Below are positions 1 through 6,063 of a stretch of 6,063 nt of DNA, in pieces. The DNA lies in IMG/VR virus record IMGVR_UViG_3300020040_000003, positions 1-6,063 of that record. One strand, 5' to 3'. Position numbers and translations under genes: made by a program. The first letter of the stretch is position 1. Each line of letters opens with the position of its first letter. Below the pieces are notes generated by a model. That model saw nothing but the letters and a program-made list of their open reading frames with translations. It searched no databases and had not been told where the DNA came from. Origin of the DNA: a virus.

Positions 1-121
1 ATTGATATGTTGAGCATTCGCCCTGTTTATTTTTGGAGTGGCGTGACTCCCGATTATTTGAACTACCAGGGCGCTGATTATTTTAACCCCATCTATAATG
101 ATATTGGTTATCAAGATGTTC
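1..121. repeat. Terminal redundancy, copy 1 (identical to 5943-6063); overlap of a circular 5,942-nt genome
   Basis: Base-by-base comparison shows 1-121 (attgatatgttgagcattcgccc...ggttatcaagatgttc) is identical to 5943-6063. The repeat lies inside one continuous reading frame (capsid gene), so it behaves as a circular-assembly overlap, not an att/LTR/ITR element. Confidence 0.95.
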
Positions 122-489
122 CTGCTGCGCGACTTTTTAGTAACTCCTCGGGCTCGAACCTCGGCCTTACCGTTGCTTACGAGCCTTGCTTCAATGAGTT
201 CCGCTCGTCTTACGATGAAGTACTAGGTTCTCTCTCTTCGTACCCTGCTCCCTCCCTCGGCGCCAGTGTTCCGCTCTATTCGTATTGGGTACAGCAGCGC
301 TCTCTTGGCTTTTCGTATGTAGGTTCGGCGCAGGCGAATTATTACCCCGCGCTTTTCGTGGATATAGCACAAGTTAACTCCCCCTTCGCTTCTGGCGTAG
401 AGGATAATTTTTTCGTAAACTTGTCTTATTCGGTTCAGAAGAAGAATTTGGTTAACAAGACGTTTGCAACTCGTTTGTCTAATCGTTAA
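1..489 (+). CDS. VP1: Microviridae major capsid protein, 3' part (continuation of 4632-5942; bases 1-121 duplicate 5943-6063)
   Basis: Base 1 corresponds to 5943, and 4632 and 5943 are both divisible by 3, so the frames agree. att gat atg ttg... reads IDMLSIRPVYFWSGVTPDY..., exactly as at 5943 onward. The C-terminal part contains YEPCFNEFRSSYDEVLG, resembling the conserved Y-x-x-R-x-x-E-Y-R block of microvirus capsids, and ends at TAA 487-489. Joined length is 1311 + 489 nt = 599 aa, typical of non-phiX Microviridae capsids. The track ORF 7-489 is just the internal-Met version of this segment. Confidence 0.92.
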   Translation: MDMLSIRPVYFWSGVTPDYLNYQGADYFNPIYNDIGYQDVPAARLFSNSSGSNLGLTVAYEPCFNEFRSSYDEVLGSLSSYPAPSLGASVPLYSYWVQQRSLGFSYVGSAQANYYPALFVDIAQVNSPFASGVEDNFFVNLSYSVQKKNLVNKTFATRLSNR

Positions 490-501
490 ACCCTTAATAT
501 T

Positions 502-798
502 ATGGCACTTGATTGGTTACTCGAAGATGTCCCTACCTACGTTTCCCGTGGTCAGCGCATTCTTTCTGTTCTTGATGGTTCTGGATCTGTCGATGTCTTG
601 CCCGGTCGTCCAGACGTGGCCGCCGAGCCTTCTGATTTTGACAAGGGTGAAAAATATAACCCTGATATTGATTTTGACCCCAATGCTTTCTGCCGTATGG
701 ATAAGTTTGACGGTCTAGAGGTTGGTCAGGAACTTATTGATTCAGAGCTAGATAGATCGAAGTCCGCTTCAAAATCCCCTAATTCTGAAGAAAAATAG
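502..798 (+). CDS. Small acidic protein (98 aa), function unknown; possible scaffolding-type protein
   Basis: ATG lies 12 nt after the capsid stop. By my hand count about 46 of 98 codons end in T, the same bias as the capsid and Rep genes. The overlapping frame 464-718 has only about 18 of 84. Net charge is about -11 (22 D/E versus 11 K/R). I recognise no motif; the scaffolding idea rests only on size, acidity and position. Confidence 0.7.
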   Translation: MALDWLLEDVPTYVSRGQRILSVLDGSGSVDVLPGRPDVAAEPSDFDKGEKYNPDIDFDPNAFCRMDKFDGLEVGQELIDSELDRSKSASKSPNSEEK

Positions 799-931
799 CT
801 ACTCTTTACTTGACGATATATGCTACGTGCGCGGACCCCTTTGGCAAGAGTCCGTGAATTGCTAAAGGTTATTGGTAACGACTGCCGGAGAGGCCGCGCA
901 TTTTTCTATCGTTCTTTAATTTCTTAACGTT

Positions 932-1123
932 ATGTCGAATACTAAACAGCCTTTCTATAGATCAAAGGCCTTTTGGACACTTATTTCGTCTATTGTTGCC
1001 GCATTGGCTGCCTTTTTCCTTGCCTCCTGTTCAGCTCAAGCTAGGATTCAGCGTAGCGGCGTTCACATCGATACAGTTCGCGTCGATTACATTATTCGTT
1101 CTAACAGTTTAATTAATACTTAG
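932..1123 (+). CDS. Predicted small lipoprotein (63 aa precursor, 31-aa mature peptide)
   Basis: MSNTKQPFYRSKAFWTLISSIVAALAAFFLASCSAQ... has a positively charged n-region (K5, R10, K12), a hydrophobic h-region of about 17 residues, then L-A-S-C (Cys33), which fits the lipobox [LVI][ASTVI][GAS]C. About 30 of 63 codons end in T by hand count. The stop TAG 1121-1123 is 1 nt from the pilot-gene ATG at 1125 (TAGTATG), so it is packed like a real gene. Confidence 0.65.
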   Translation: MSNTKQPFYRSKAFWTLISSIVAALAAFFLASCSAQARIQRSGVHIDTVRVDYIIRSNSLINT

Positions 1124-1124
1124 T

Positions 1125-2378
1125 ATGGCTGTCCCCATTGCCGCTGCTGCGTCTTTTGGTCAGGCTCTCGGCCAGTCTGCCTCCTCCACAGGTGTTACAG
1201 GTTTGATTTCTGGCGCCCTCGGTCAACTTTTTGGCGGCATGAACGCCCGCCGCCAATGGCGCTTTCAACAGAAGCAAATGAAGCTTCAACAGCAGTATGC
1301 TCTTGAGCAAATGCAGAAGCAATCAGAGCTTTCTTACGCTAATTGGCAAAGACAATTTGATTACGAAAATGCCTACAACGACCCTTCGAAGGTTTTCGAC
1401 CGCTATTTGAAGGCTGGCGTAACCCCCGCCGCTGTTTTAGGCTCTTCCGGCGTTGGCGTGAACGCTACTATGTCCGGCGGTTCCGCTCCTATGCCCTCCG
1501 CTTCTGGCCCTTCGGGTGGTTCACCCGTCGCTCCCGGCGGTTTCGCTACCACTGACCCTACTGCTATCGCGCAGAATATGGTCGCGCGATCCACCGTCGA
1601 CCGCAATGCTGCTGCTGCTAATCGAGACGACGCCGAAGCTGATCTTATGCGAGGCAATACCCATAGTACGGAGTGGCGAAAGGAAATTGATGAGCTAGAG
1701 AAGAAGTCTCTAGAACATAACATCGATAATGTTTCTGAATTAATTCGTCTCAATCGCGCTTTGGCTGACATTCATACTGCTGACGCTGAGTACGCTGATC
1801 TTATGGCTACGTATAGGTTTCAAGACTTTGTTGCCCTGTATGCGAAACACGTTGAGGAGGCGAATCAGATCAAGAGATACAATGATAAATTTTTTGATTC
1901 TGTTTATGCTGCTCAAATCGCTCGGGACTTCGCGGCCGCTTACGAATCTGCCGCCTCTGGCGCTGTCTTAAACGTTGAGTCTGAAATACGTAAGGTTAAT
2001 TTGGCTGATCTTCGTGAGTGGTTCTCCCTGAATTGGGATTCTGAAGTCGATGTTCCGGAGGTTGATGAGAAGGGTAAGCCTACTGGTAGGACAATAAAGA
2101 TGACAGGTCGTCAGATTCATCAGAAGTTAATGGGCCTTGCCGCCTCGGAAGGCGAGCAGAGCCTTTCAGGTCGTTGGTTTCAAAACCGATCTAGCAAGAA
2201 CGCTTTTGGTTATAGTCTAGCGAGAACTGCCTTGGTTGGCGCTTTGGCTGTTGCCGGCACAGCCGCGACAAAGCGTCCTGTTTCGGTTGGTTATGATGAA
2301 GAAAGGGAAATTTACAACAGAGATGGTGAATTTGTCGGAGGCACAAGGGTGGCCCGCCGTCATTTGAGGAGAAATTGA
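1125..2378 (+). CDS. VP2: Microviridae DNA pilot / minor capsid protein (H/VP2-like), 417 aa
   Basis: The N-terminus is Gly/Ala/Ser-rich and hydrophobic (MAVPIAAAASFGQALGQSASSTGVTGLISGALGQLFGG). A Q-rich predicted helical segment follows. YNDPSKVFDRYLKAGVTPAAVLG (1374-1442) matches the N-x-P-x-x-x-x-x-R-x-x-x-A-G-(L/V)-N/T-P signature I know from gokushovirus VP2 proteins. After that comes a long helical, charged region and a C-terminal hydrophobic stretch (ALVGALAVAGTAAT). Its size and position downstream of the capsid gene are typical. Confidence 0.85.
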   Translation: MAVPIAAAASFGQALGQSASSTGVTGLISGALGQLFGGMNARRQWRFQQKQMKLQQQYALEQMQKQSELSYANWQRQFDYENAYNDPSKVFDRYLKAGVTPAAVLGSSGVGVNATMSGGSAPMPSASGPSGGSPVAPGGFATTDPTAIAQNMVARSTVDRNAAAANRDDAEADLMRGNTHSTEWRKEIDELEKKSLEHNIDNVSELIRLNRALADIHTADAEYADLMATYRFQDFVALYAKHVEEANQIKRYNDKFFDSVYAAQIARDFAAAYESAASGAVLNVESEIRKVNLADLREWFSLNWDSEVDVPEVDEKGKPTGRTIKMTGRQIHQKLMGLAASEGEQSLSGRWFQNRSSKNAFGYSLARTALVGALAVAGTAATKRPVSVGYDEEREIYNRDGEFVGGTRVARRHLRRN

Positions 2379-2401
2379 ACAATTCTTTTAACCTTTTGAA
2401 C

Positions 2402-2433
2402 TTTGCGTTTACTCTCCTTTTGTTGTATATTTG
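2402..2433 (+). promoter_or_regulatory. Candidate Bacteroidota-type promoter (-33 TTTG, 20-nt spacer, -7 TAnnTTTG)
   Basis: TTTG at 2402-2405 and TATATTTG at 2426-2433 are separated by 20 nt. This matches the published Bacteroides fragilis primary-sigma consensus (TTTG, 19-21 nt, TAnnTTTG). It sits in the 81-nt gap between the pilot gene and ORF 2460, about 27 nt upstream of that ATG. It is a motif match only. Confidence 0.4.
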
Positions 2434-2459
2434 CATTGTAAACCAATAACCACATTGTC

Positions 2460-2780
2460 ATGAAAACGGTTAGTAAAAAGTCCCGTATCAACGATTTAAT
2501 GATTGACGTTGTCGAGTACGCTTTCACTGAGTGGCTCGTTCGCCAAGGCGTATTCACCTCTTTTAAGACGAACTATGAGTGCATCGTTTCGCCTTATAGG
2601 AGTTTTCGCGAACGTTTGCGCGCCCATATTCGGCGCTCCCTCTGTAGCCCCGGTTTTGATCCAGGCAATCTCATTTCCTCTGCTTTCTTATTTACTGCGA
2701 CGCCCGAGGGTGCTGAGTTTTGGCAGAAGCAGTCGGATGCTTGGCAGCGATTTTACGTAAGATTACAAACAAGACTTTAA
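2460..2780 (+). CDS. Basic 106-aa protein, function unknown (candidate DNA-binding/packaging protein)
   Basis: This is the first ORF after the candidate promoter. About 37 of 106 codons end in T. Net charge is about +6 (16 K/R versus 10 D/E), with an Arg cluster RSFRERLRAHIRR and an aromatic C-terminal segment TPEGAEFWQKQSDAWQRFY. I cannot assign a family. The overlapping alternative frame 2503-2760 is rejected. Confidence 0.62.
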   Translation: MKTVSKKSRINDLMIDVVEYAFTEWLVRQGVFTSFKTNYECIVSPYRSFRERLRAHIRRSLCSPGFDPGNLISSAFLFTATPEGAEFWQKQSDAWQRFYVRLQTRL

Positions 2781-2791
2781 ATTATACTACT

Positions 2792-3115
2792 ATGACAGAA
2801 ATTCATGTCGTTATTCGTCGAATTAACCCGGCCCTCAAAATCGATCTTGTTCAGGTAGGGCGTCTTAAAGATTGTCAATTTGAGCCCCTTCCCCCCAGTG
2901 CTATCGAGAACTCTCCTATTGCACGCTTTTTGAAGAGTTCGAACATCAGCGATTCGCCCTACATTGATCATTCAGACGTCTCTAATCTCATTGCCGCCTG
3001 CGAAGATCTTCCCGGCTTCGACATTGAGTTTTTCGACAATACAATTATTCTTATTTTTGACCTTGAACTTGACTACGATGAAATCACGACGAAAGAAAAA
3101 GAGTCGGGGCACTAA
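2792..3115 (+). CDS. Acidic 107-aa protein, function unknown (candidate scaffolding protein or other accessory function)
   Basis: The track gives 2720-3115, but that start overlaps the previous gene by 61 nt. The in-frame ATG at 2792 (MTEIHVVIRR...) lies 11 nt after the previous stop and matches the tight packing seen elsewhere. About 42 of 107 codons end in T. Net charge is about -11 (20 D/E versus 9 K/R), with an acidic C-terminal half (DLPGFDIEFFDNTIILIFDLELDYDEITTKEKE). Confidence 0.62.
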   Translation: MTEIHVVIRRINPALKIDLVQVGRLKDCQFEPLPPSAIENSPIARFLKSSNISDSPYIDHSDVSNLIAACEDLPGFDIEFFDNTIILIFDLELDYDEITTKEKESGH

Positions 3116-3160
3116 AGTGGTAACCCGCCCCCTTGGTGGAAGAGTTCTTTAACCGTGGCG

Positions 3161-3192
3161 CTCCCCGGGGGGTCCCCCCCCCTGGGAGTTTT
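3161..3192 (+). terminator. GC-rich hairpin plus T-tract; candidate intrinsic terminator
   Basis: CTCCC (3161-3165) pairs with GGGAG (3184-3188). The G6 run (3167-3172) pairs with part of the C9 run (3174-3182), with one C/T mismatch (3166/3183). TTTT follows directly at 3189-3192. The element begins 46 nt downstream of the stop at 3113-3115. The T-tract is short at 4 nt. Confidence 0.5.
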
Positions 3193-3205
3193 CGCTTGTA
3201 CACTC

Positions 3206-3334
3206 ACCGAATTTATTCGGTATATATTTTTGTGAAGTGAGCCATGGAGCTCGAAGACGCGAAGCGTCCCGGCCGTTAAGGCCGTCGAGCGGCGTAACGA
3301 AACAGTTTTCGCGCTCGAAAGTACCGCCTTTCGA
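3206..3334 (+). promoter_or_regulatory. Cluster of stem-loops in the rep-upstream non-coding region; candidate ssDNA origin and/or rep leader structure
   Basis: All stems were checked by hand. (1) ACCGAA/TTCGGT at 3206-3221 with loop TTTA. (2) GACGC-GAA-GCGTC at 3256-3268, containing the d(GCGAAGC) mini-hairpin at 3259-3265. (3) CGGCC-GTTAA-GGCCG at 3270-3284. (4) TCGAGCG (3285-3291) pairs with CGCTCGA (3312-3318), enclosing an inner CGAAA/TTTCG stem (3298-3302/3307-3311). (5) TCGAAAG (3315-3321) pairs with CTTTCGA (3328-3334), which overlaps stem 4 and so excludes it. The direct repeats GCTCGAA (3249, 3313) and CGAAGCG (3260, 3332) are also present, as is a -7-like TATTTTTG at 3225-3232. Confidence 0.45.
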
Positions 3335-3339
3335 AGCGC

Positions 3340-3558
3340 ATGGTAATGTTTTTGGATATGGATCATTTTGACTTTAGACCTAGATTTTCCCCGATAGTTG
3401 ATTGTATATCGTATCGCTATTCTGTTGGTGCATATCGTGGCAAAAAACGAGTTATTATTGCTTGGTTTGCCGACAAAGCCCCCGCTGAAGATTATCTCGC
3501 TCGTTGTCGTCTTGATAGCCCTTATATTAAGTTTGATTGCCTTCAAAGCTTATTGTAA
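3340..3558 (+). CDS. Hypothetical 72-aa protein; stop overlaps the Rep start (TAATG)
   Basis: ATG at 3340 and TAA at 3556-3558 share base 3558 with the preferred Rep ATG (3558-3560), a classic translational-coupling arrangement. About 38 of 72 codons end in T by hand count, as high as in confirmed genes. I recognise no motif. The true start could instead be the in-frame ATG at 3346 or 3358. Confidence 0.45.
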   Translation: MVMFLDMDHFDFRPRFSPIVDCISYRYSVGAYRGKKRVIIAWFADKAPAEDYLARCRLDSPYIKFDCLQSLL

Positions 3559-4628
3559 TGCCTTGTTCGTCGCCCATATGGATACGCAACCGTCGTTATT
3601 TTGATAAGAAAAATCCTTGTCGAAACGGTTCCGACGCCGCCAAGTCCGCTTTGGCCCTTCGCCCTTGGGATATTTCGCGCCAGTGGCTGATGGTTCCTTG
3701 TGGAAAATGCGAGGACTGTTTGCGTCGCCAGCGTAATGATTGGTTCGTTCGCCTCGAGCGCGAGCTTGCTCGTTGTAAAGCCGAGTCTCGGCAGGCTATT
3801 TTTATTACAATAACCATAGCCCCTAAGTATTACGATGAAGCATTGCAGAGCCCCTCTAAGTTTATTCGACGATGGAATGAAAGAGTCCGCCACACGCTCG
3901 GACACACTTTTAAGCACGCGTTTTTCCAAGAGTTTGGCACCCACCCAGAAACAGGGTTAGAGCCACGTCTTCATTTTCACGGTTTTCTTTTTGGAACTAA
4001 CTGCATGTACAATGATATTCGAGCGGCCGTCCGCGACCTTGGTTTTGTTTGGCTTGCGAAAGCCACTCATAAACGCGCTCGTTATTGCGTTAAGTATGTT
4101 ACTAAACAGATTCAATTCAACCCCGAAGAAATTTCGGACAAATTTGTTAATGTAGATGGAAATCTTACACCTCTATCTTGCCTCCTCCAACATCGCCGTT
4201 ATACGCGAAAATTCGTATCTGCTGGCGTTGGTGATTTTCTTGGTTATATGCCTCGCCCTTCTGCCCGTACTTCGACGTGGTCTTATTTTGACTTTGAGAA
4301 GCGTATCAATTATAATTACGCGATTCCTCGATACTATCTTAAATATCTTAAATCAGAAGACGAGGTTACTCGTTCGATTGCCGCCGCTGATTCTTATGCA
4401 CGTTTTAGCAAGTCTTCTCTGGTTAAGCGTATTGTGTCTTTGTGCGTTGAGCGGTTCAGTCTCGATTCCGCCGTATCCCGTAGAGAGACGTATACCTGGG
4501 AGCAAAAGCAAATGATGCGTTTTTCTGCCTCTTCTCGCAAGATGCCTGATTTCGATCCCCCTACCTGGCTAGATTTGGATATTATTCAATTTTGGCGAGA
4601 TCACTACAAACTCCAACTAAACATTTAA
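3558..4628 (+). CDS. VP4: Microviridae replication initiation protein (A/VP4-like HUH rolling-circle endonuclease), 356 aa
   Basis: The track ORF begins at 3537. The in-frame ATG at 3558 gives MPCSSPIWIRNRRY..., the M-x-C-x-x-P-(I/V)-x-(I/L)-x-N opening typical of gokusho-type VP4. There is a CGKCEDC cluster (3699-3719). RCR motif I is IFITITI (F82-I87, 3801-3818). Motif II HUH is RLHFHGFLF (His codons at 3972-3974 and 3978-3980). Motif III is RYCVKYVTK (3083+1000 = 4083-4106) with two Tyr four residues apart (Y176 and Y180), as in the two-tyrosine phiX174 gpA class. Stop is TAA 4626-4628. Confidence 0.92.
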   Translation: MPCSSPIWIRNRRYFDKKNPCRNGSDAAKSALALRPWDISRQWLMVPCGKCEDCLRRQRNDWFVRLERELARCKAESRQAIFITITIAPKYYDEALQSPSKFIRRWNERVRHTLGHTFKHAFFQEFGTHPETGLEPRLHFHGFLFGTNCMYNDIRAAVRDLGFVWLAKATHKRARYCVKYVTKQIQFNPEEISDKFVNVDGNLTPLSCLLQHRRYTRKFVSAGVGDFLGYMPRPSARTSTWSYFDFEKRINYNYAIPRYYLKYLKSEDEVTRSIAAADSYARFSKSSLVKRIVSLCVERFSLDSAVSRRETYTWEQKQMMRFSASSRKMPDFDPPTWLDLDIIQFWRDHYKLQLNI

Positions 4629-4631
4629 TTT

Positions 4632-6063
4632 ATGGGAAAACAACCTTTTATTTCGCACGCTGTAAATGGTTATTCTCGATACGACGTTCCCGAGAGTAAG
4701 GCTTTTACGTGTACGCCGGGTATCCTTTATCCGGTTCGAATTGATTTTATTAACGCCCGTGATCGTGTGTCTATTGAGCAGGGAATTGACGTCCGTAGCA
4801 ACCCGCTCGCCGTCCCGACATTTAATCCTTACACTATTCGACTTCATCGTTTTTACGTGCCGCTTCAGCTGTATCACCCTGAAATGCGAACGAATAGTAG
4901 TAAGTTTGATATGAATGATTTGAGTTTGAATTGGATTACCGCTCTTGTTGGCACCTCGGGCACCACCACCCCTAACTCCGCTCTTGGTGTTACCCGAGCC
5001 TTCCCTAATTCGCTTATGTCTTGGCTTCGTATCTCCAATAAGTCGTCGTTGCAGCTTTCCAATCAGCCTCCTTATACCGCTTCCCTTCCTTCTGGAGCTC
5101 CGATCAATCAATGGGCGAACGCTGATACGTATTTAGCTTATTGGGACATCGTCCGAAACTACTACGGCTACTCGCAGTGGTCTTTGTACTCCGTTGCGTG
5201 GCCCGCCTCTTGGTCGATTCTTGATGACTCCTACTCCTTTAGTCCTAAGTCTGTTTTCTTTAAGCAGGAGTTTGCCAATCTCGAGTTTCTTGATGCTTAC
5301 TTTGAGAGCCAGTTCTATCCGTCGGCCGTTACTAGTACGAATAATACTTTTAATCGAGGCAATTTGTTTTTTCAAATAATTAACTCACAGCTCCCGAGTG
5401 GCAGCGATCAAGATGGTTACCCCGTTTCTTCTACGCTGCCCTCTGCTGCTGCAGCCGTTTCTGGCGGCGGCCCATCCGGACAGTTCAGTCTTTCTATAGG
5501 AGAGAGCTCTGTTCCTGGCATTTCGGCTTTTTTGTTTGCGCATCCTATGGCTGTCGTTCCCTCGAATCCTGACCGATTTAGTCGTCTTATTCCTACCGGT
5601 TCATCGTCCGCCGTTTCGATGTCTGGTGTTTCGACCATCCCTCAGTTGGCCATCGCTTCGCGTCTTCAGGAATATAAGGACCTTCTCGGCGCTGGCGGTA
5701 GTCGTTATAGCGATTGGCTGGAAACATTTTTTGCTTCTAAAATTGAGCACGTAGACCGTCCTAAGCTTCTTTTTAGTGCTTCGCAGACTGTTAATGTGCA
5801 GATTGTTATGAATCAATCTGGATATAACAATTTTTCCGGCGCGCCGGTCAGTAGTCCCCTCGGACAGCAGGGTGGCGCCATCGCGTTCAACGACAGATTA
5901 GGGCGTCGACAGTCTTATTATTTCCGGGAACCTGGTTATTTAATTGATATGTTGAGCATTCGCCCTGTTTATTTTTGGAGTGGCGTGACTCCCGATTATT
6001 TGAACTACCAGGGCGCTGATTATTTTAACCCCATCTATAATGATATTGGTTATCAAGATGTTC
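4632..6063 (+). CDS. VP1: Microviridae major capsid protein (F/VP1 family), 5' part; the ORF is open to the window end and continues at base 1
   Basis: ATG at 4632 lies 3 nt after the Rep stop (TAA 4626-4628). My hand translation in this frame has no stop through 6063: MGKQPFISHAVNGYSRYDVPESKAFTCTPGILYPVRIDFINARDRVSIEQGIDVRSNPLAVPTFNPYTIRLHRFYVPLQLY... It shows F/VP1-type landmarks. The N-terminal G-x-L-x-P-V strand is followed by R-x-x-P-(n)-F-Y-V-P. RLQEYKDLLGAGGSRYSDWLETFF (5661-5732) matches the conserved GGsRY-x-(D/E)-x-(L/I)-x-x-x-F block. EPGYLIDMLSIRPVY spans the junction. The gene is absent from the ORF track only because it has no stop inside the window. Confidence 0.92.
   Translation, partial: MGKQPFISHAVNGYSRYDVPESKAFTCTPGILYPVRIDFINARDRVSIEQGIDVRSNPLAVPTFNPYTIRLHRFYVPLQLYHPEMRTNSSKFDMNDLSLNWITALVGTSGTTTPNSALGVTRAFPNSLMSWLRISNKSSLQLSNQPPYTASLPSGAPINQWANADTYLAYWDIVRNYYGYSQWSLYSVAWPASWSILDDSYSFSPKSVFFKQEFANLEFLDAYFESQFYPSAVTSTNNTFNRGNLFFQIINSQLPSGSDQDGYPVSSTLPSAAAAVSGGGPSGQFSLSIGESSVPGISAFLFAHPMAVVPSNPDRFSRLIPTGSSSAVSMSGVSTIPQLAIASRLQEYKDLLGAGGSRYSDWLETFFASKIEHVDRPKLLFSASQTVNVQIVMNQSGYNNFSGAPVSSPLGQQGGAIAFNDRLGRRQSYYFREPGYLIDMLSIRPVYFWSGVTPDYLNYQGADYFNPIYNDIGYQDV
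5943..6063. repeat. Terminal redundancy, copy 2 (identical to 1-121)
   Basis: Same comparison as for copy 1; the offset is exactly 5942 nt. The match runs to the last base of the window, so the true extent of the overlap is set by the window edge. Confidence 0.95.

Follow-up and report, generated by a model that had tools for sequence, protein, structure and literature searches.

The window analysed here is a 6,063-nucleotide (nt) stretch of viral DNA (IMG/VR record IMGVR_UViG_3300020040_000003, positions 1 to 6,063), and its positions 3206-3338, non-coding and upstream of the replication-initiator gene rep, are, as judged by comparison with related genomes, one copy of an exchangeable cassette of gut microviruses. 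We propose that this cassette is a complementary-strand origin-like element acting on the viral single-stranded DNA (ssDNA), a reading to which we assign a probability of about 0.45. The cassette has a highly significant fold whose stems covary, its motifs are strand-specific, it is lost and swapped as a module, and it is oriented with the T-rich strand of its carriers. We favour an origin because strand matters, because the motifs stabilise DNA more than RNA, because orientation tracks strand asymmetry, and because exchange and dispensability resemble those of the single-strand origins (ssos) of rolling-circle plasmids.

In the proposed mechanism the cassette would act as DNA rather than as RNA, and the process would be priming. 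It would fold in the viral ssDNA into a hairpin (P), a rod ending in a three-way junction, and a second hairpin (H5). Sheared G-A pairs would lend this fold unusual stability as DNA and let single-stranded DNA-binding protein (SSB) bind it only poorly, and the naked folded patch would be the start site at which the host priming machinery begins complementary-strand synthesis on the incoming genome. The cassette would thus be a single-strand origin comparable in its working to those of phages G4, St-1 and alpha3 or to the sso cassettes of rolling-circle plasmids.

Positions 1-121 are repeated at the end of the window, showing that it holds a complete circular microvirus genome of 5,942 nt. This genome encodes a Phage_F capsid protein, a REP_ORF2-G2P/phrog_942 replication initiator (Rep) and a DNA pilot protein, with all genes on the plus strand. 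In GenBank the closest matches are uncultured Microviridae from the faeces of pig, civet and deer, with DNA identities of about 75-80%, and at least 80 IMG/VR relatives have a Rep 86-92% identical to the query Rep profile. Covariation and conservation figures given below come from alignment A2 of 42 relatives that carry the block, and the presence of open reading frames (ORFs) and the strand counts of hairpins from 71 relatives; L-numbers are labels of relatives (L001 is MG945664 and L010 is MG945515).

Folded as DNA, 3116-3339 reached -51.9 kcal/mol (z -5.4), which none of 200 dinucleotide shuffles equalled, and folded as RNA it reached -96.5 (z -5.1). Furthermore, when the whole genome was scanned with DNA parameters in sliding 120-nt segments, its three lowest z-scores (about -4 to -5) all fell within 3121-3360. 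An earlier model annotation made from the letters alone (the sequence-only reading) had called the hairpin density of this region non-random, which these values bear out, and the stems it placed at 3206-3221, 3256-3268, 3270-3284 and 3315-3321/3328-3334 were found where it had put them. The anatomy of the region is as follows.

3161-3192, plus strand: hairpin T, a GC-rich stem-loop (3161-3188) followed by TTTT, intrinsic-terminator-like
3206-3226, plus strand: hairpin P, ACCGAA-TTTA-TTCGGT (3206-3221) followed by TATATA (3221-3226); left end of the cassette
3232-3243, plus strand: 5' arm of the rod, made of G3232-T3233, GAA 3234-3236, G3237-T3238, GA 3239-3240 and G3241-C3243
3244-3248, plus strand: bulge ATGGA between the rod and stem J; alignment columns 102 and 104-106 invariant, column 103 T in 38 relatives and C in 4
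3249-3290, plus strand: three-way junction, in which stem J (GCTCGA 3249-3254 / TCGAGC 3285-3290) encloses hp1 and hp2
3256-3268, plus strand: hp1, GACGC-GAA-GCGTC, with GCGAAGC at 3259-3265
3270-3284, plus strand: hp2, CGGCC-GTTAA-GGCCG
3291-3303, plus strand: 3' arm of the rod, made of G3291-C3293, GTA 3294-3296, A3297-C3298, GAA 3299-3301 and A3302-C3303; pairs with 3232-3243
3310-3338, plus strand: hairpin H5, TCGAAAG 3315-3321 / CTTTCGA 3328-3334 with loop TACCGC and a GC base (3310-3314/3335-3338); right end of the cassette

Read in order, the rod consists of 3232-3233 paired with 3302-3303, GAA 3234-3236 facing GAA 3299-3301, 3237-3238 paired with 3297-3298, GA 3239-3240 facing GTA 3294-3296, and 3241-3243 paired with 3291-3293, after which come the ATGGA bulge and stem J. 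By eye, two more stems could be drawn, CTCAC/GTGAG enclosing P and a closing one with CCATGG; indels made both unscorable on the alignment.

Alignment of the related gaps showed that, H5 excepted, the stems covary with compensatory changes in the 42 relatives. Stem cells were paired in 94.3% of cases, compared to 34-50% when the partners were slid, and cells with double-sided changes numbered 106 versus 41.6 in shuffles, with none of 500 shuffles reaching 106. In the junction (stem J, hp1 and hp2) all 16 pairs were 100% paired in the 42 sequences, G-T occurred in only 2 of 672 cells, and double-sided changes were found at five pairs: columns 108/147 (CG 25, GC 17), 109/146 (TA 22, CG 20), 129/141 (GC 24, AT 12, CG 6), 132/138 and 115/125. 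The G-T share across all stems of the block was about 0.8%. RNAalifold independently recovered P, the junction and H5, and added the three invariant pairs 3241-3243/3291-3293 plus two long-range pairs. With a one-column misalignment corrected, these long-range pairs were 98-100% Watson-Crick: column pair 89/161 was GC in 23 sequences, AT in 18 and GT in 1, and 90/160 was TA in 21 and CG in 21. A third pair of the same helix, columns 95/155, was TA in 41 and CG in 1, and L028 loses one base from each rod arm simultaneously. A local hairpin at 3292-3312 ('H4') was given up for this long-range rod: the changes in L019 produce G-T in H4 and C-G in the rod, and 89/161 and 90/160 covary. Hairpin P was 98.8% paired, its pair 66/73 being AT in 21 and GC in 21; the GTATA after it was mostly invariant, and variants of P found elsewhere include CTGAA/TTCAG, CTGGC/GCCAG and ACC-GTA-GGT.

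Two further proposals of the sequence-only reading did not survive the alignment. A stem between 3285-3291 and 3312-3318 showed no compensatory change and was unpaired at one position in 18 of 42 sequences and G-T at the next in 20 of 42; 3285-3290 pairs instead with 3249-3254, with double compensatory changes and 100% pairing. Similarly, the recurring GCTCGAA and CGAAGCG motifs, which had been likened to iterons, are stem halves that change with their pairing partners and not with each other: the first GCTCGAA copy becomes GGCCGAA or GCCCGAA together with its partner, and the second copy is fixed.

Hairpin H5 behaved differently from the other stems. Its sequence, including the loop (T-A-C-C-G-Y), is conserved and 6 of its 9 pairs never vary, and it shows no covariation because it is conserved as sequence. 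Overall, mean pairwise identity was 90.7% in the block 3242-3339, 76% in the adjacent small gene (58% if third positions alone are counted) and 61-66% in hairpin T and the AT-rich tail of the gap. Conservation of 91% with perfect compensatory changes over many genomes thus points to purifying selection on the fold.

Five G-N-A motifs recur in the rod and junction, one as the hp1 loop and four as the strands of the two internal loops. The G was invariant in all five and the A in four, the second motif of the 5' arm lacking its A in 3 of 42 sequences, and the N position was occupied by three or four different bases in four motifs and by two (A or G) in the fifth. The hp1 loop was GAA in 19 relatives, GCA in 16, GTA in 4 and GGA in 3, with an invariant closing C-G and a stem that was always paired, and hp1 thus has the sequence features of a d(GC-GNA-GC) mini-hairpin (closing C-G pair, fixed G and A, free N and at least 2 G-C pairs in the stem). 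The hp2 loop took the form G-NN(N)-A (GTTAA 25, GTTA 10, GTTGA 5, GTCA 1, GCTA 1). In the 3' arm of the rod, columns 152-154 were GTA in 24, GAA in 10, GCA in 4 and GGA in 3, columns 157-159 were GAA in 26, GTA in 11, GGA in 3 and GCA in 2, and the G and A of both motifs were invariant except in one gapped sequence. Every non-Watson-Crick element of the rod and junction is therefore of the G-N-A or G-NN(N)-A type: one triloop, one tetra- or pentaloop and two GNA-facing-GNA internal loops. GNA facing GNA gives a stable DNA zipper closed by sheared G-A pairs, and the G-N-A motifs of the rod and junction probably form such pairs. The motifs are also strand-specific: C-GNA-G hairpins with stems of at least 4 base pairs (bp) numbered 98 on the plus strand and 16 on the minus strand of the 71 genomes, where about 15.6 per strand were expected, and inside the gap the counts were 58 versus 1.

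The DNA mini-hairpin is formed solely by GNA triloops closed by C-G, with melting temperatures of 70-76 °C for all four N, and r(GCGAAAGC), the tetraloop analogue, melts at 39 °C, far below its DNA counterpart (PMC13037366). Mini-hairpins occur at the complementary-strand origins of G4 (GCGAAAGC) and St-1/alpha3 (GCGTTAGC), versions with GNNA loops exist, and further examples are RSF1010 ssiA (CCGAAGG) and the N4 hairpin promoters; SSB binds such hairpins poorly (PMC13037366). The sequence-only reading was therefore essentially right in calling GCGAAGC a phage-origin mini-hairpin; it had named phiX174, and the documented phage cases are G4 and St-1/alpha3.

Two other mini-hairpins were noted in passing. 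In about a dozen relatives, a second plus-strand GNA mini-hairpin with a 7-bp stem, GCGGTTC-GGA-GAACCGC, lies at about window positions 800-930 (about 3250 in rotated records), between ORFs of 98 and 63 amino acids (aa) and in a region annotated as coding in some relatives; the window has no perfect copy. In L259, L261 and L269, related viral contigs of 26.9-50 kb, GGCCACC-GCGAAGC-GGTAA follows a long perfect palindrome, CATGTATTACA(A/T)TGTAATACATG. This isolated mini-hairpin, unrelated to microviruses, may be another DNA-level signal.

The same loops bear on the rather unlikely alternative of a function at the RNA level, in which the cassette would be a small structured RNA gene of its own or a cis RNA element, transcribed from the P/TATATA end to near H5 and, for example, regulating replication or lysis or serving as a decoy for a host factor. 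The fold is equally significant with RNA parameters, a multi-helix architecture with a long-range covarying helix and constant ends would suit such an RNA, TATATA follows P in nearly all versions, and the accessory status described below fits a non-essential regulator. G-U pairs are nearly absent, however, GUUA is not a GNRA loop in RNA, and Rfam covariance models gave no match at E<=1 on either strand of the whole window. C-GNA-G triloops and GUUA, GCUA or GUCA loops are unfavoured in RNA, yet they define DNA mini-hairpins (PMC13037366). Moreover, the cassette has neither a conserved -35 nor a Bacteroidetes-type -7 box, and no convincing terminator follows H5; the -7-like TATTTTTG that the sequence-only reading had pointed out at 3225-3232 is among the least conserved stretches, with a mean pairwise identity of 64%.

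The cassette is patchily distributed among genomes. The block is missing in six complete genomes of the same clade (121-nt terminal repeats; Rep identity to the query Rep profile 86-89%), where hairpin T is the sole hairpin in the gap. In the short-gap genomes checked (five of the six, plus L206) the block was not found elsewhere and there was no other sizeable non-coding region. VP2 is 455-458 aa long in five short-gap genomes (L198, L228, L191, L207, L218), compared to 417 aa in the window; L206, checked too, has a different arrangement. Genome length is constant at about 5.8-6.06 kb, short-gap genomes included, and a longer VP2 at constant length is consistent with a packaging-size constraint that trades coding against non-coding DNA. 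In other relatives, again with a nearly identical Rep, the block is replaced. In the L002-type cassette, a three-way junction with the hairpins ACAACC-GAA-GGTTGT and ACCGC-GAA-GCGGT is set inside the terminator loop, its outer stem and first hairpin covarying, and further alternatives are an imperfect long hairpin of about 100 nt, or P plus a long hairpin plus H5. In larger viral contigs the L002-type mini-hairpin turned up in unrelated or chance contexts alone. Among genomes that have lost the intervening gene between the gap and rep, L001 keeps the window-type module and L050 carries the L002-type cassette. The cassette unit also occurs in distant microviruses, namely prophage L163, two further gut-metagenome lineages and the MG945515 clade, and H5 was seen in 89 viral contigs; two kinds of cassette interior occur with it, and it is found in either orientation with respect to the genes.

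This distribution is at odds with the cassette being part of a Rep-dependent plus-strand origin, in which an HUH Rep would bind a hairpin or the T-shaped junction and cut close by (candidate sites are the GTATATA behind P and the AT-rich tail), as at a relaxase nic site or the terminal hairpin of adeno-associated virus (AAV). Points in its favour are the likeness of a hairpin with the conserved AT-rich GTATATA behind it to HUH substrates (the nick in phiX174 falls within an AT-rich ..TTGATATTAAT.. sequence) and the likeness of the three-way junction to the T-shaped AAV hairpin that an HUH Rep recognises; the orientation described below is also tied to replication polarity, as seen in strand skew, and not to genes, as it would be for any origin. 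We nevertheless regard this as improbable, since the block is not present wherever Rep is: at 86-89% Rep identity to the query profile there are complete genomes in which P, the junction and H5 are all missing. Furthermore, the interior can be swapped for an unrelated long hairpin with Rep unchanged, the iterons that the sequence-only reading had proposed in its version of this hypothesis are not repeat-like, and no loop (GNA, GTTAA, TACCGY) resembles a nonanucleotide nick loop.

Patchy presence, together with exchange among distant microviruses via the conserved ends P and H5, could also mean that the cassette is a selfish or neutral recombining insert, or that it has another role in ssDNA (condensation, packaging, or protection against nucleases or defence) and is not a priming site. 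The uniform genome length of 5.8-6.06 kb, the longer VP2 of short-gap genomes and recurrent targeting by clustered regularly interspaced short palindromic repeats (CRISPR) fit this alternative, which we consider unlikely. The purifying selection on the fold indicated by 91% conservation and perfect compensatory changes counts against it, and no transposase, target-site duplication or bacterial-genome copy was seen. As to targeting, a spacer of a gut-metagenome type II-C CRISPR array matches the following feature over 29 of 29 nt.

3252-3280, no strand assigned: protospacer

In addition, 3226-3255 is matched by spacers of four CRISPR arrays. The CRISPR contigs L297, L307, L310 and L311 share a 36-nt repeat, GTTGTATCTTATCGAAATTCTACATCAAACCACAAC, with Cas9 and a type II Cas1 adjacent, and hold 154 spacers. 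More than 60 of these match genomes of the window clade and the MG945515 clade, genome-wide and on both strands, so the cassette is no special hot spot. An assignment of the repeat as Cas13b-like was ruled out by these Cas9 and Cas1 neighbours, and because the arrays are type II the spacers are uninformative about transcription. Since the same arrays target both clades, the window clade and the MG945515 clade share a host.

Hairpin H5, with arms of 11 and 12 bases around a 6-base spacer, has a geometry like that of a recombinase core site, and we also considered that it might be a tyrosine recombinase/XerCD attachment site for lysogeny. One cassette-bearing relative, L163, is a prophage, and microvirus prophages integrated at dif-like sites are reportedly known. 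The L163 prophage (1985-7814, 5,815 nt) is flanked by exact 15-nt direct repeats, AATTTAACATAATGA, which resemble the XerD arm of dif; it adjoins bacterial ZnuA and formate/nitrite-transporter genes and carries P, the long-hairpin cassette and H5. Its flanking repeat lies about 530 nt from H5, however, the window has no dif-like motif within 3 mismatches, and the H5 core gave 14 matches in 185,579 species genomes, where about 9 were expected by chance, none of them with cassette flanks. With chromosomal matches at chance level and in unrelated contexts and the prophage junction elsewhere, H5 as a dif/XerCD site is largely refuted, and we hold it to be highly improbable.

We return to the complementary-strand origin with the evidence on orientation. 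In the MG945515 clade, known from contigs of several independent samples, the unit lies directly upstream of rep and is inverted relative to all genes. Its interior, between P-like and H5 ends, is of the junction or the long-hairpin type, and distant members of the clade carry further GNA mini-hairpins, four or five in number, on that non-coding strand; one of them shows a compensatory change (GTGC-GAA-GCAC versus GCGC-GAA-GCGC). The base compositions of the two clades are mirror images: the coding strand of the window clade has 31.8% T and 22.1% A (third positions T 40-42%, A 14-16%), whereas that of the MG945515 clade has 36% A and 17% T (third positions A 35-40%, T 9-12%). In T-rich-coding genomes all cassette markers lay on the gene strand (70, 74, 19 and 13 genomes), and in A-rich-coding genomes all lay on the opposite strand (1, 6 and 4 genomes); in every case, therefore, the cassette sits on the T-rich strand. 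The coding strand is A-rich in GenBank relatives of the MG945515 capsid as well, and the A-rich-coding lineage is thus large. Among its genomes (L010, L275-L281, L290, L293, L299 and L316-L321), A made up 35-43% of the coding strand, and third-position T was 9-12% in the MG945515 clade and in one tortoise-microvirus relative.

Published work describes T-rich third positions as typical of ssDNA phages and explains them by C-to-T deamination of the single strand (PMC3278643); the A-rich lineage is the reverse of this usual pattern too. Its mirrored third-position composition is not accounted for by host codon usage, because both clades share a host by their CRISPR arrays. It is possible, although we regard it as doubtful, that the A-rich lineage (MG945515-like viruses with their bajarodmic, Dulem and tortoise-microvirus relatives) has an inverted replication polarity and packages the strand antisense to its genes, so that the cassette would mark the encapsidated strand in both lineages. 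For the RNA alternative, occurrence in either orientation relative to genes would suit an autonomous unit; the T-rich-strand orientation is left unexplained, though given the few lineages it would arise by chance about 1 time in 4. The inverted clade also bears on the suggestion of the sequence-only reading that the region is a structured leader controlling translation of rep. This cannot be its general function, because the unit is antisense to rep in the MG945515 clade; moreover, L001 and L050 have lost the intervening gene, and the -7 box is unconserved.

Several observations weigh against an origin. The six complete same-clade genomes without the cassette mean that it is dispensable or that its role is supplied otherwise, and in the window clade the viral strand has the sequence of the mRNA, which leaves room for an RNA role there. 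As for architecture, an intricate junction and a long-range helix of 2 bp are no less typical of functional RNAs. The relatives represent few independent lineages (about three to five), so that there were fewer independent events than the covariation and orientation counts suggest, and false 'pairs' linked to lineage reached values as high as 93%. The strand argument furthermore requires that the MG945515-like clade package the strand antisense to its genes, a polarity deduced from composition alone, and a literature keyword search returned no report of antisense-strand packaging in Microviridae. Finally, searches of phage records, plasmids and Rfam revealed no similarity to characterised origins. 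Even so, of the three hypotheses put forward by the sequence-only reading, the complementary-strand origin remains the best fit to the DNA-type GNA and GNNA loops, the strand specificity, the cassette behaviour and the T-rich-strand orientation.

Among known systems, the origins of G4, St-1, alpha3 and phiK come close: they too are intergenic regions of Microviridae in which the viral strand forms a cluster of stable hairpins with C-GNA-G or C-GNNA-G mini-hairpins, as the cassette does, and the GTTA loop of St-1/alpha3 is also used by versions of hp2. The logic proposed for these origins, an SSB-free folded patch recognised by a host priming enzyme (PMC13037366), is the one suggested here. At the sequence level there is no similarity to them: when 3100-3345 was compared with 50,697 phage records by blastn (11-nt words), the only matches were close gut-microvirus relatives and one chance coliphage hit. 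Unlike those origins, the cassette is a rod and three-way junction with GNA-facing-GNA loops and not three tandem hairpins, it adjoins rep and does not lie between capsid and spike genes, and it is dispensable and swappable within its clade; its host may not be enterobacterial.

Plasmid ssos are strand- and orientation-specific, non-essential, and exchanged among replicons with related Rep proteins. The rolling-circle plasmid ssos (ssoA, ssoT, ssoU, ssoW) and the sso of ICEBs1 resemble the cassette in being non-coding, heavily folded, non-essential and exchanged, and the cassette shares with this functional class that it is folded, dispensable, exchangeable and, as strand skew suggests, orientation-specific. 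The imperfect long hairpin of about 100 nt in one alternative cassette is reminiscent of ssoA. In contrast to plasmid ssos, no RS_B or CS-6 element was identified in the cassette and the carrier is a phage, and a plasmid search gave no match at E<=1 beyond two chance matches of 25-28 nt.

Other single-strand initiation sites share fewer features. The n' (PriA) hairpin of phiX174 lies on the viral strand in an intergenic region and initiates synthesis of the complementary strand (cited in PMC9865509). It consists of one hairpin, which PriA recognises, and has no sequence similarity to the cassette; the cassette gives no indication of PriA. In roodoodoo- and reekeekeeviruses, rep-adjacent conserved hairpins with compensatory substitutions have been tentatively linked to negative-strand initiation (PMC9865509). 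Those hairpins belong to other clades, have other sequences and are simple, and no GNA architecture, cassette exchange or relation of orientation to skew was described for them. RSF1010 ssiA and the promoters of the N4 vRNAP are initiation hairpins with CCGAAGG or GC-GNA-GC, and the L002-type cassette has exact CCGAAGG and GCGAAGC; they are, however, recognised by the element-encoded RepB' and vRNAP, neither of which is encoded by the window genome. In the AAV inverted terminal repeat, which serves replication, a long stem and two short hairpins meet in a T-shaped three-way junction that an HUH Rep recognises. This repeat is like the cassette in placing a three-way junction with two short hairpins in viral ssDNA, and unlike it in that the AAV genome is linear with self-priming termini, whereas the cassette does not conserve a GAGC repeat and stem J is GGCC in half of the relatives. 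New here are the all-G-N-A rod-and-junction architecture, the exchange of cassettes and the finding that orientation goes with strand skew.

The borders of the non-coding gap differ from those first described. The region 3116-3339 had been called non-coding, which holds for 3153-3339; 3116-3152 is coding, as part of an ORF at 3078-3152, and the next gene, placed earlier at 3340, has its conserved start (ATGGAT) at 3358. The true non-coding gap is therefore 3153-3357. Translation of the block itself, named earlier as an outcome that would speak against a structural role, was rejected: for the candidate frames 3237-3371 (plus) and 3112-3546 (minus), relatives have 1-nt indels in the block, substitutions track pairing over codons, and there is no Pfam match. 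Two features flank the gap or close it.

3078-3152, plus strand: ORF for a 24-aa basic peptide, MKSRRKKKSRGTKVVTRPLGGRVL*; left boundary of the non-coding gap, outside the element
3340-3357, plus strand: AT-rich tail, ATGGTAATGTTTTTGGAT, before the small gene

The ORF at 3078-3152 overlaps the 3' end of the gene at 2792-3115 in the +1 frame, is kept in 71 of 71 relatives with synonymous third-position changes, and has been left unannotated in GenBank relatives. Its product has no Pfam or PHROG match; we take the 24-aa peptide, as a candidate, to belong to the class of the DNA-packaging peptides J of phiX174 and VP8 of gokushoviruses, which it presumably resembles. Hairpin T is predicted to be a separate, ordinary terminator-like element: a terminator scan called 3164-3186 plus a T-run (AGTTTT), it lies downstream of a gene and has the features of an intrinsic terminator, and it occurs in every relative, including those with the shortest gaps (73-85 nt). 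Five pairs of its stem show compensatory changes, and about 11% of the cells in its predicted stems are G-T. In the tail, a GTAAT(A/G)TTTT-like motif occurs in most relatives, including most of the short-gap ones.

The small gene ahead of rep (3358-3558, plus strand, 66 aa, MDHFDFRPRF...) is kept in most relatives. It is largely deleted in L001 (MG945664), where the last 45 nt or so are left, and wholly gone in L050, and it seems either to be dispensable or to be missing because these assemblies are defective. Elsewhere in the genome, the gap at 2379-2459 between the VP2 gene (1125-2378) and the next gene holds TTTG-N20-TATATTTG, which fits the Bacteroidetes promoter consensus TTTG / TAnnTTTG; this putative promoter hints at a Bacteroidetes host.

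For microviruses of the gut the finding would matter because signals for the conversion of ssDNA to duplex have so far been characterised from coliphages alone. The cassette provides an alignable candidate signal with exact pairs and with natural 'knock-out' and 'swap' variants, and other ssDNA elements can be screened by its G-N-A rule. Work on DNA structure and nanotechnology may also take an interest in so compact and stable a DNA three-way junction, composed solely of motifs that probably form sheared G-A pairs. That orientation follows strand composition makes the packaged strand of A-rich lineages a testable question. If these lineages do package the antisense strand, they would be the first negative-sense Microviridae known to us, and one could then tell from sequence alone which strand is packaged, by the direction in which a GNA-hairpin single-strand origin points.

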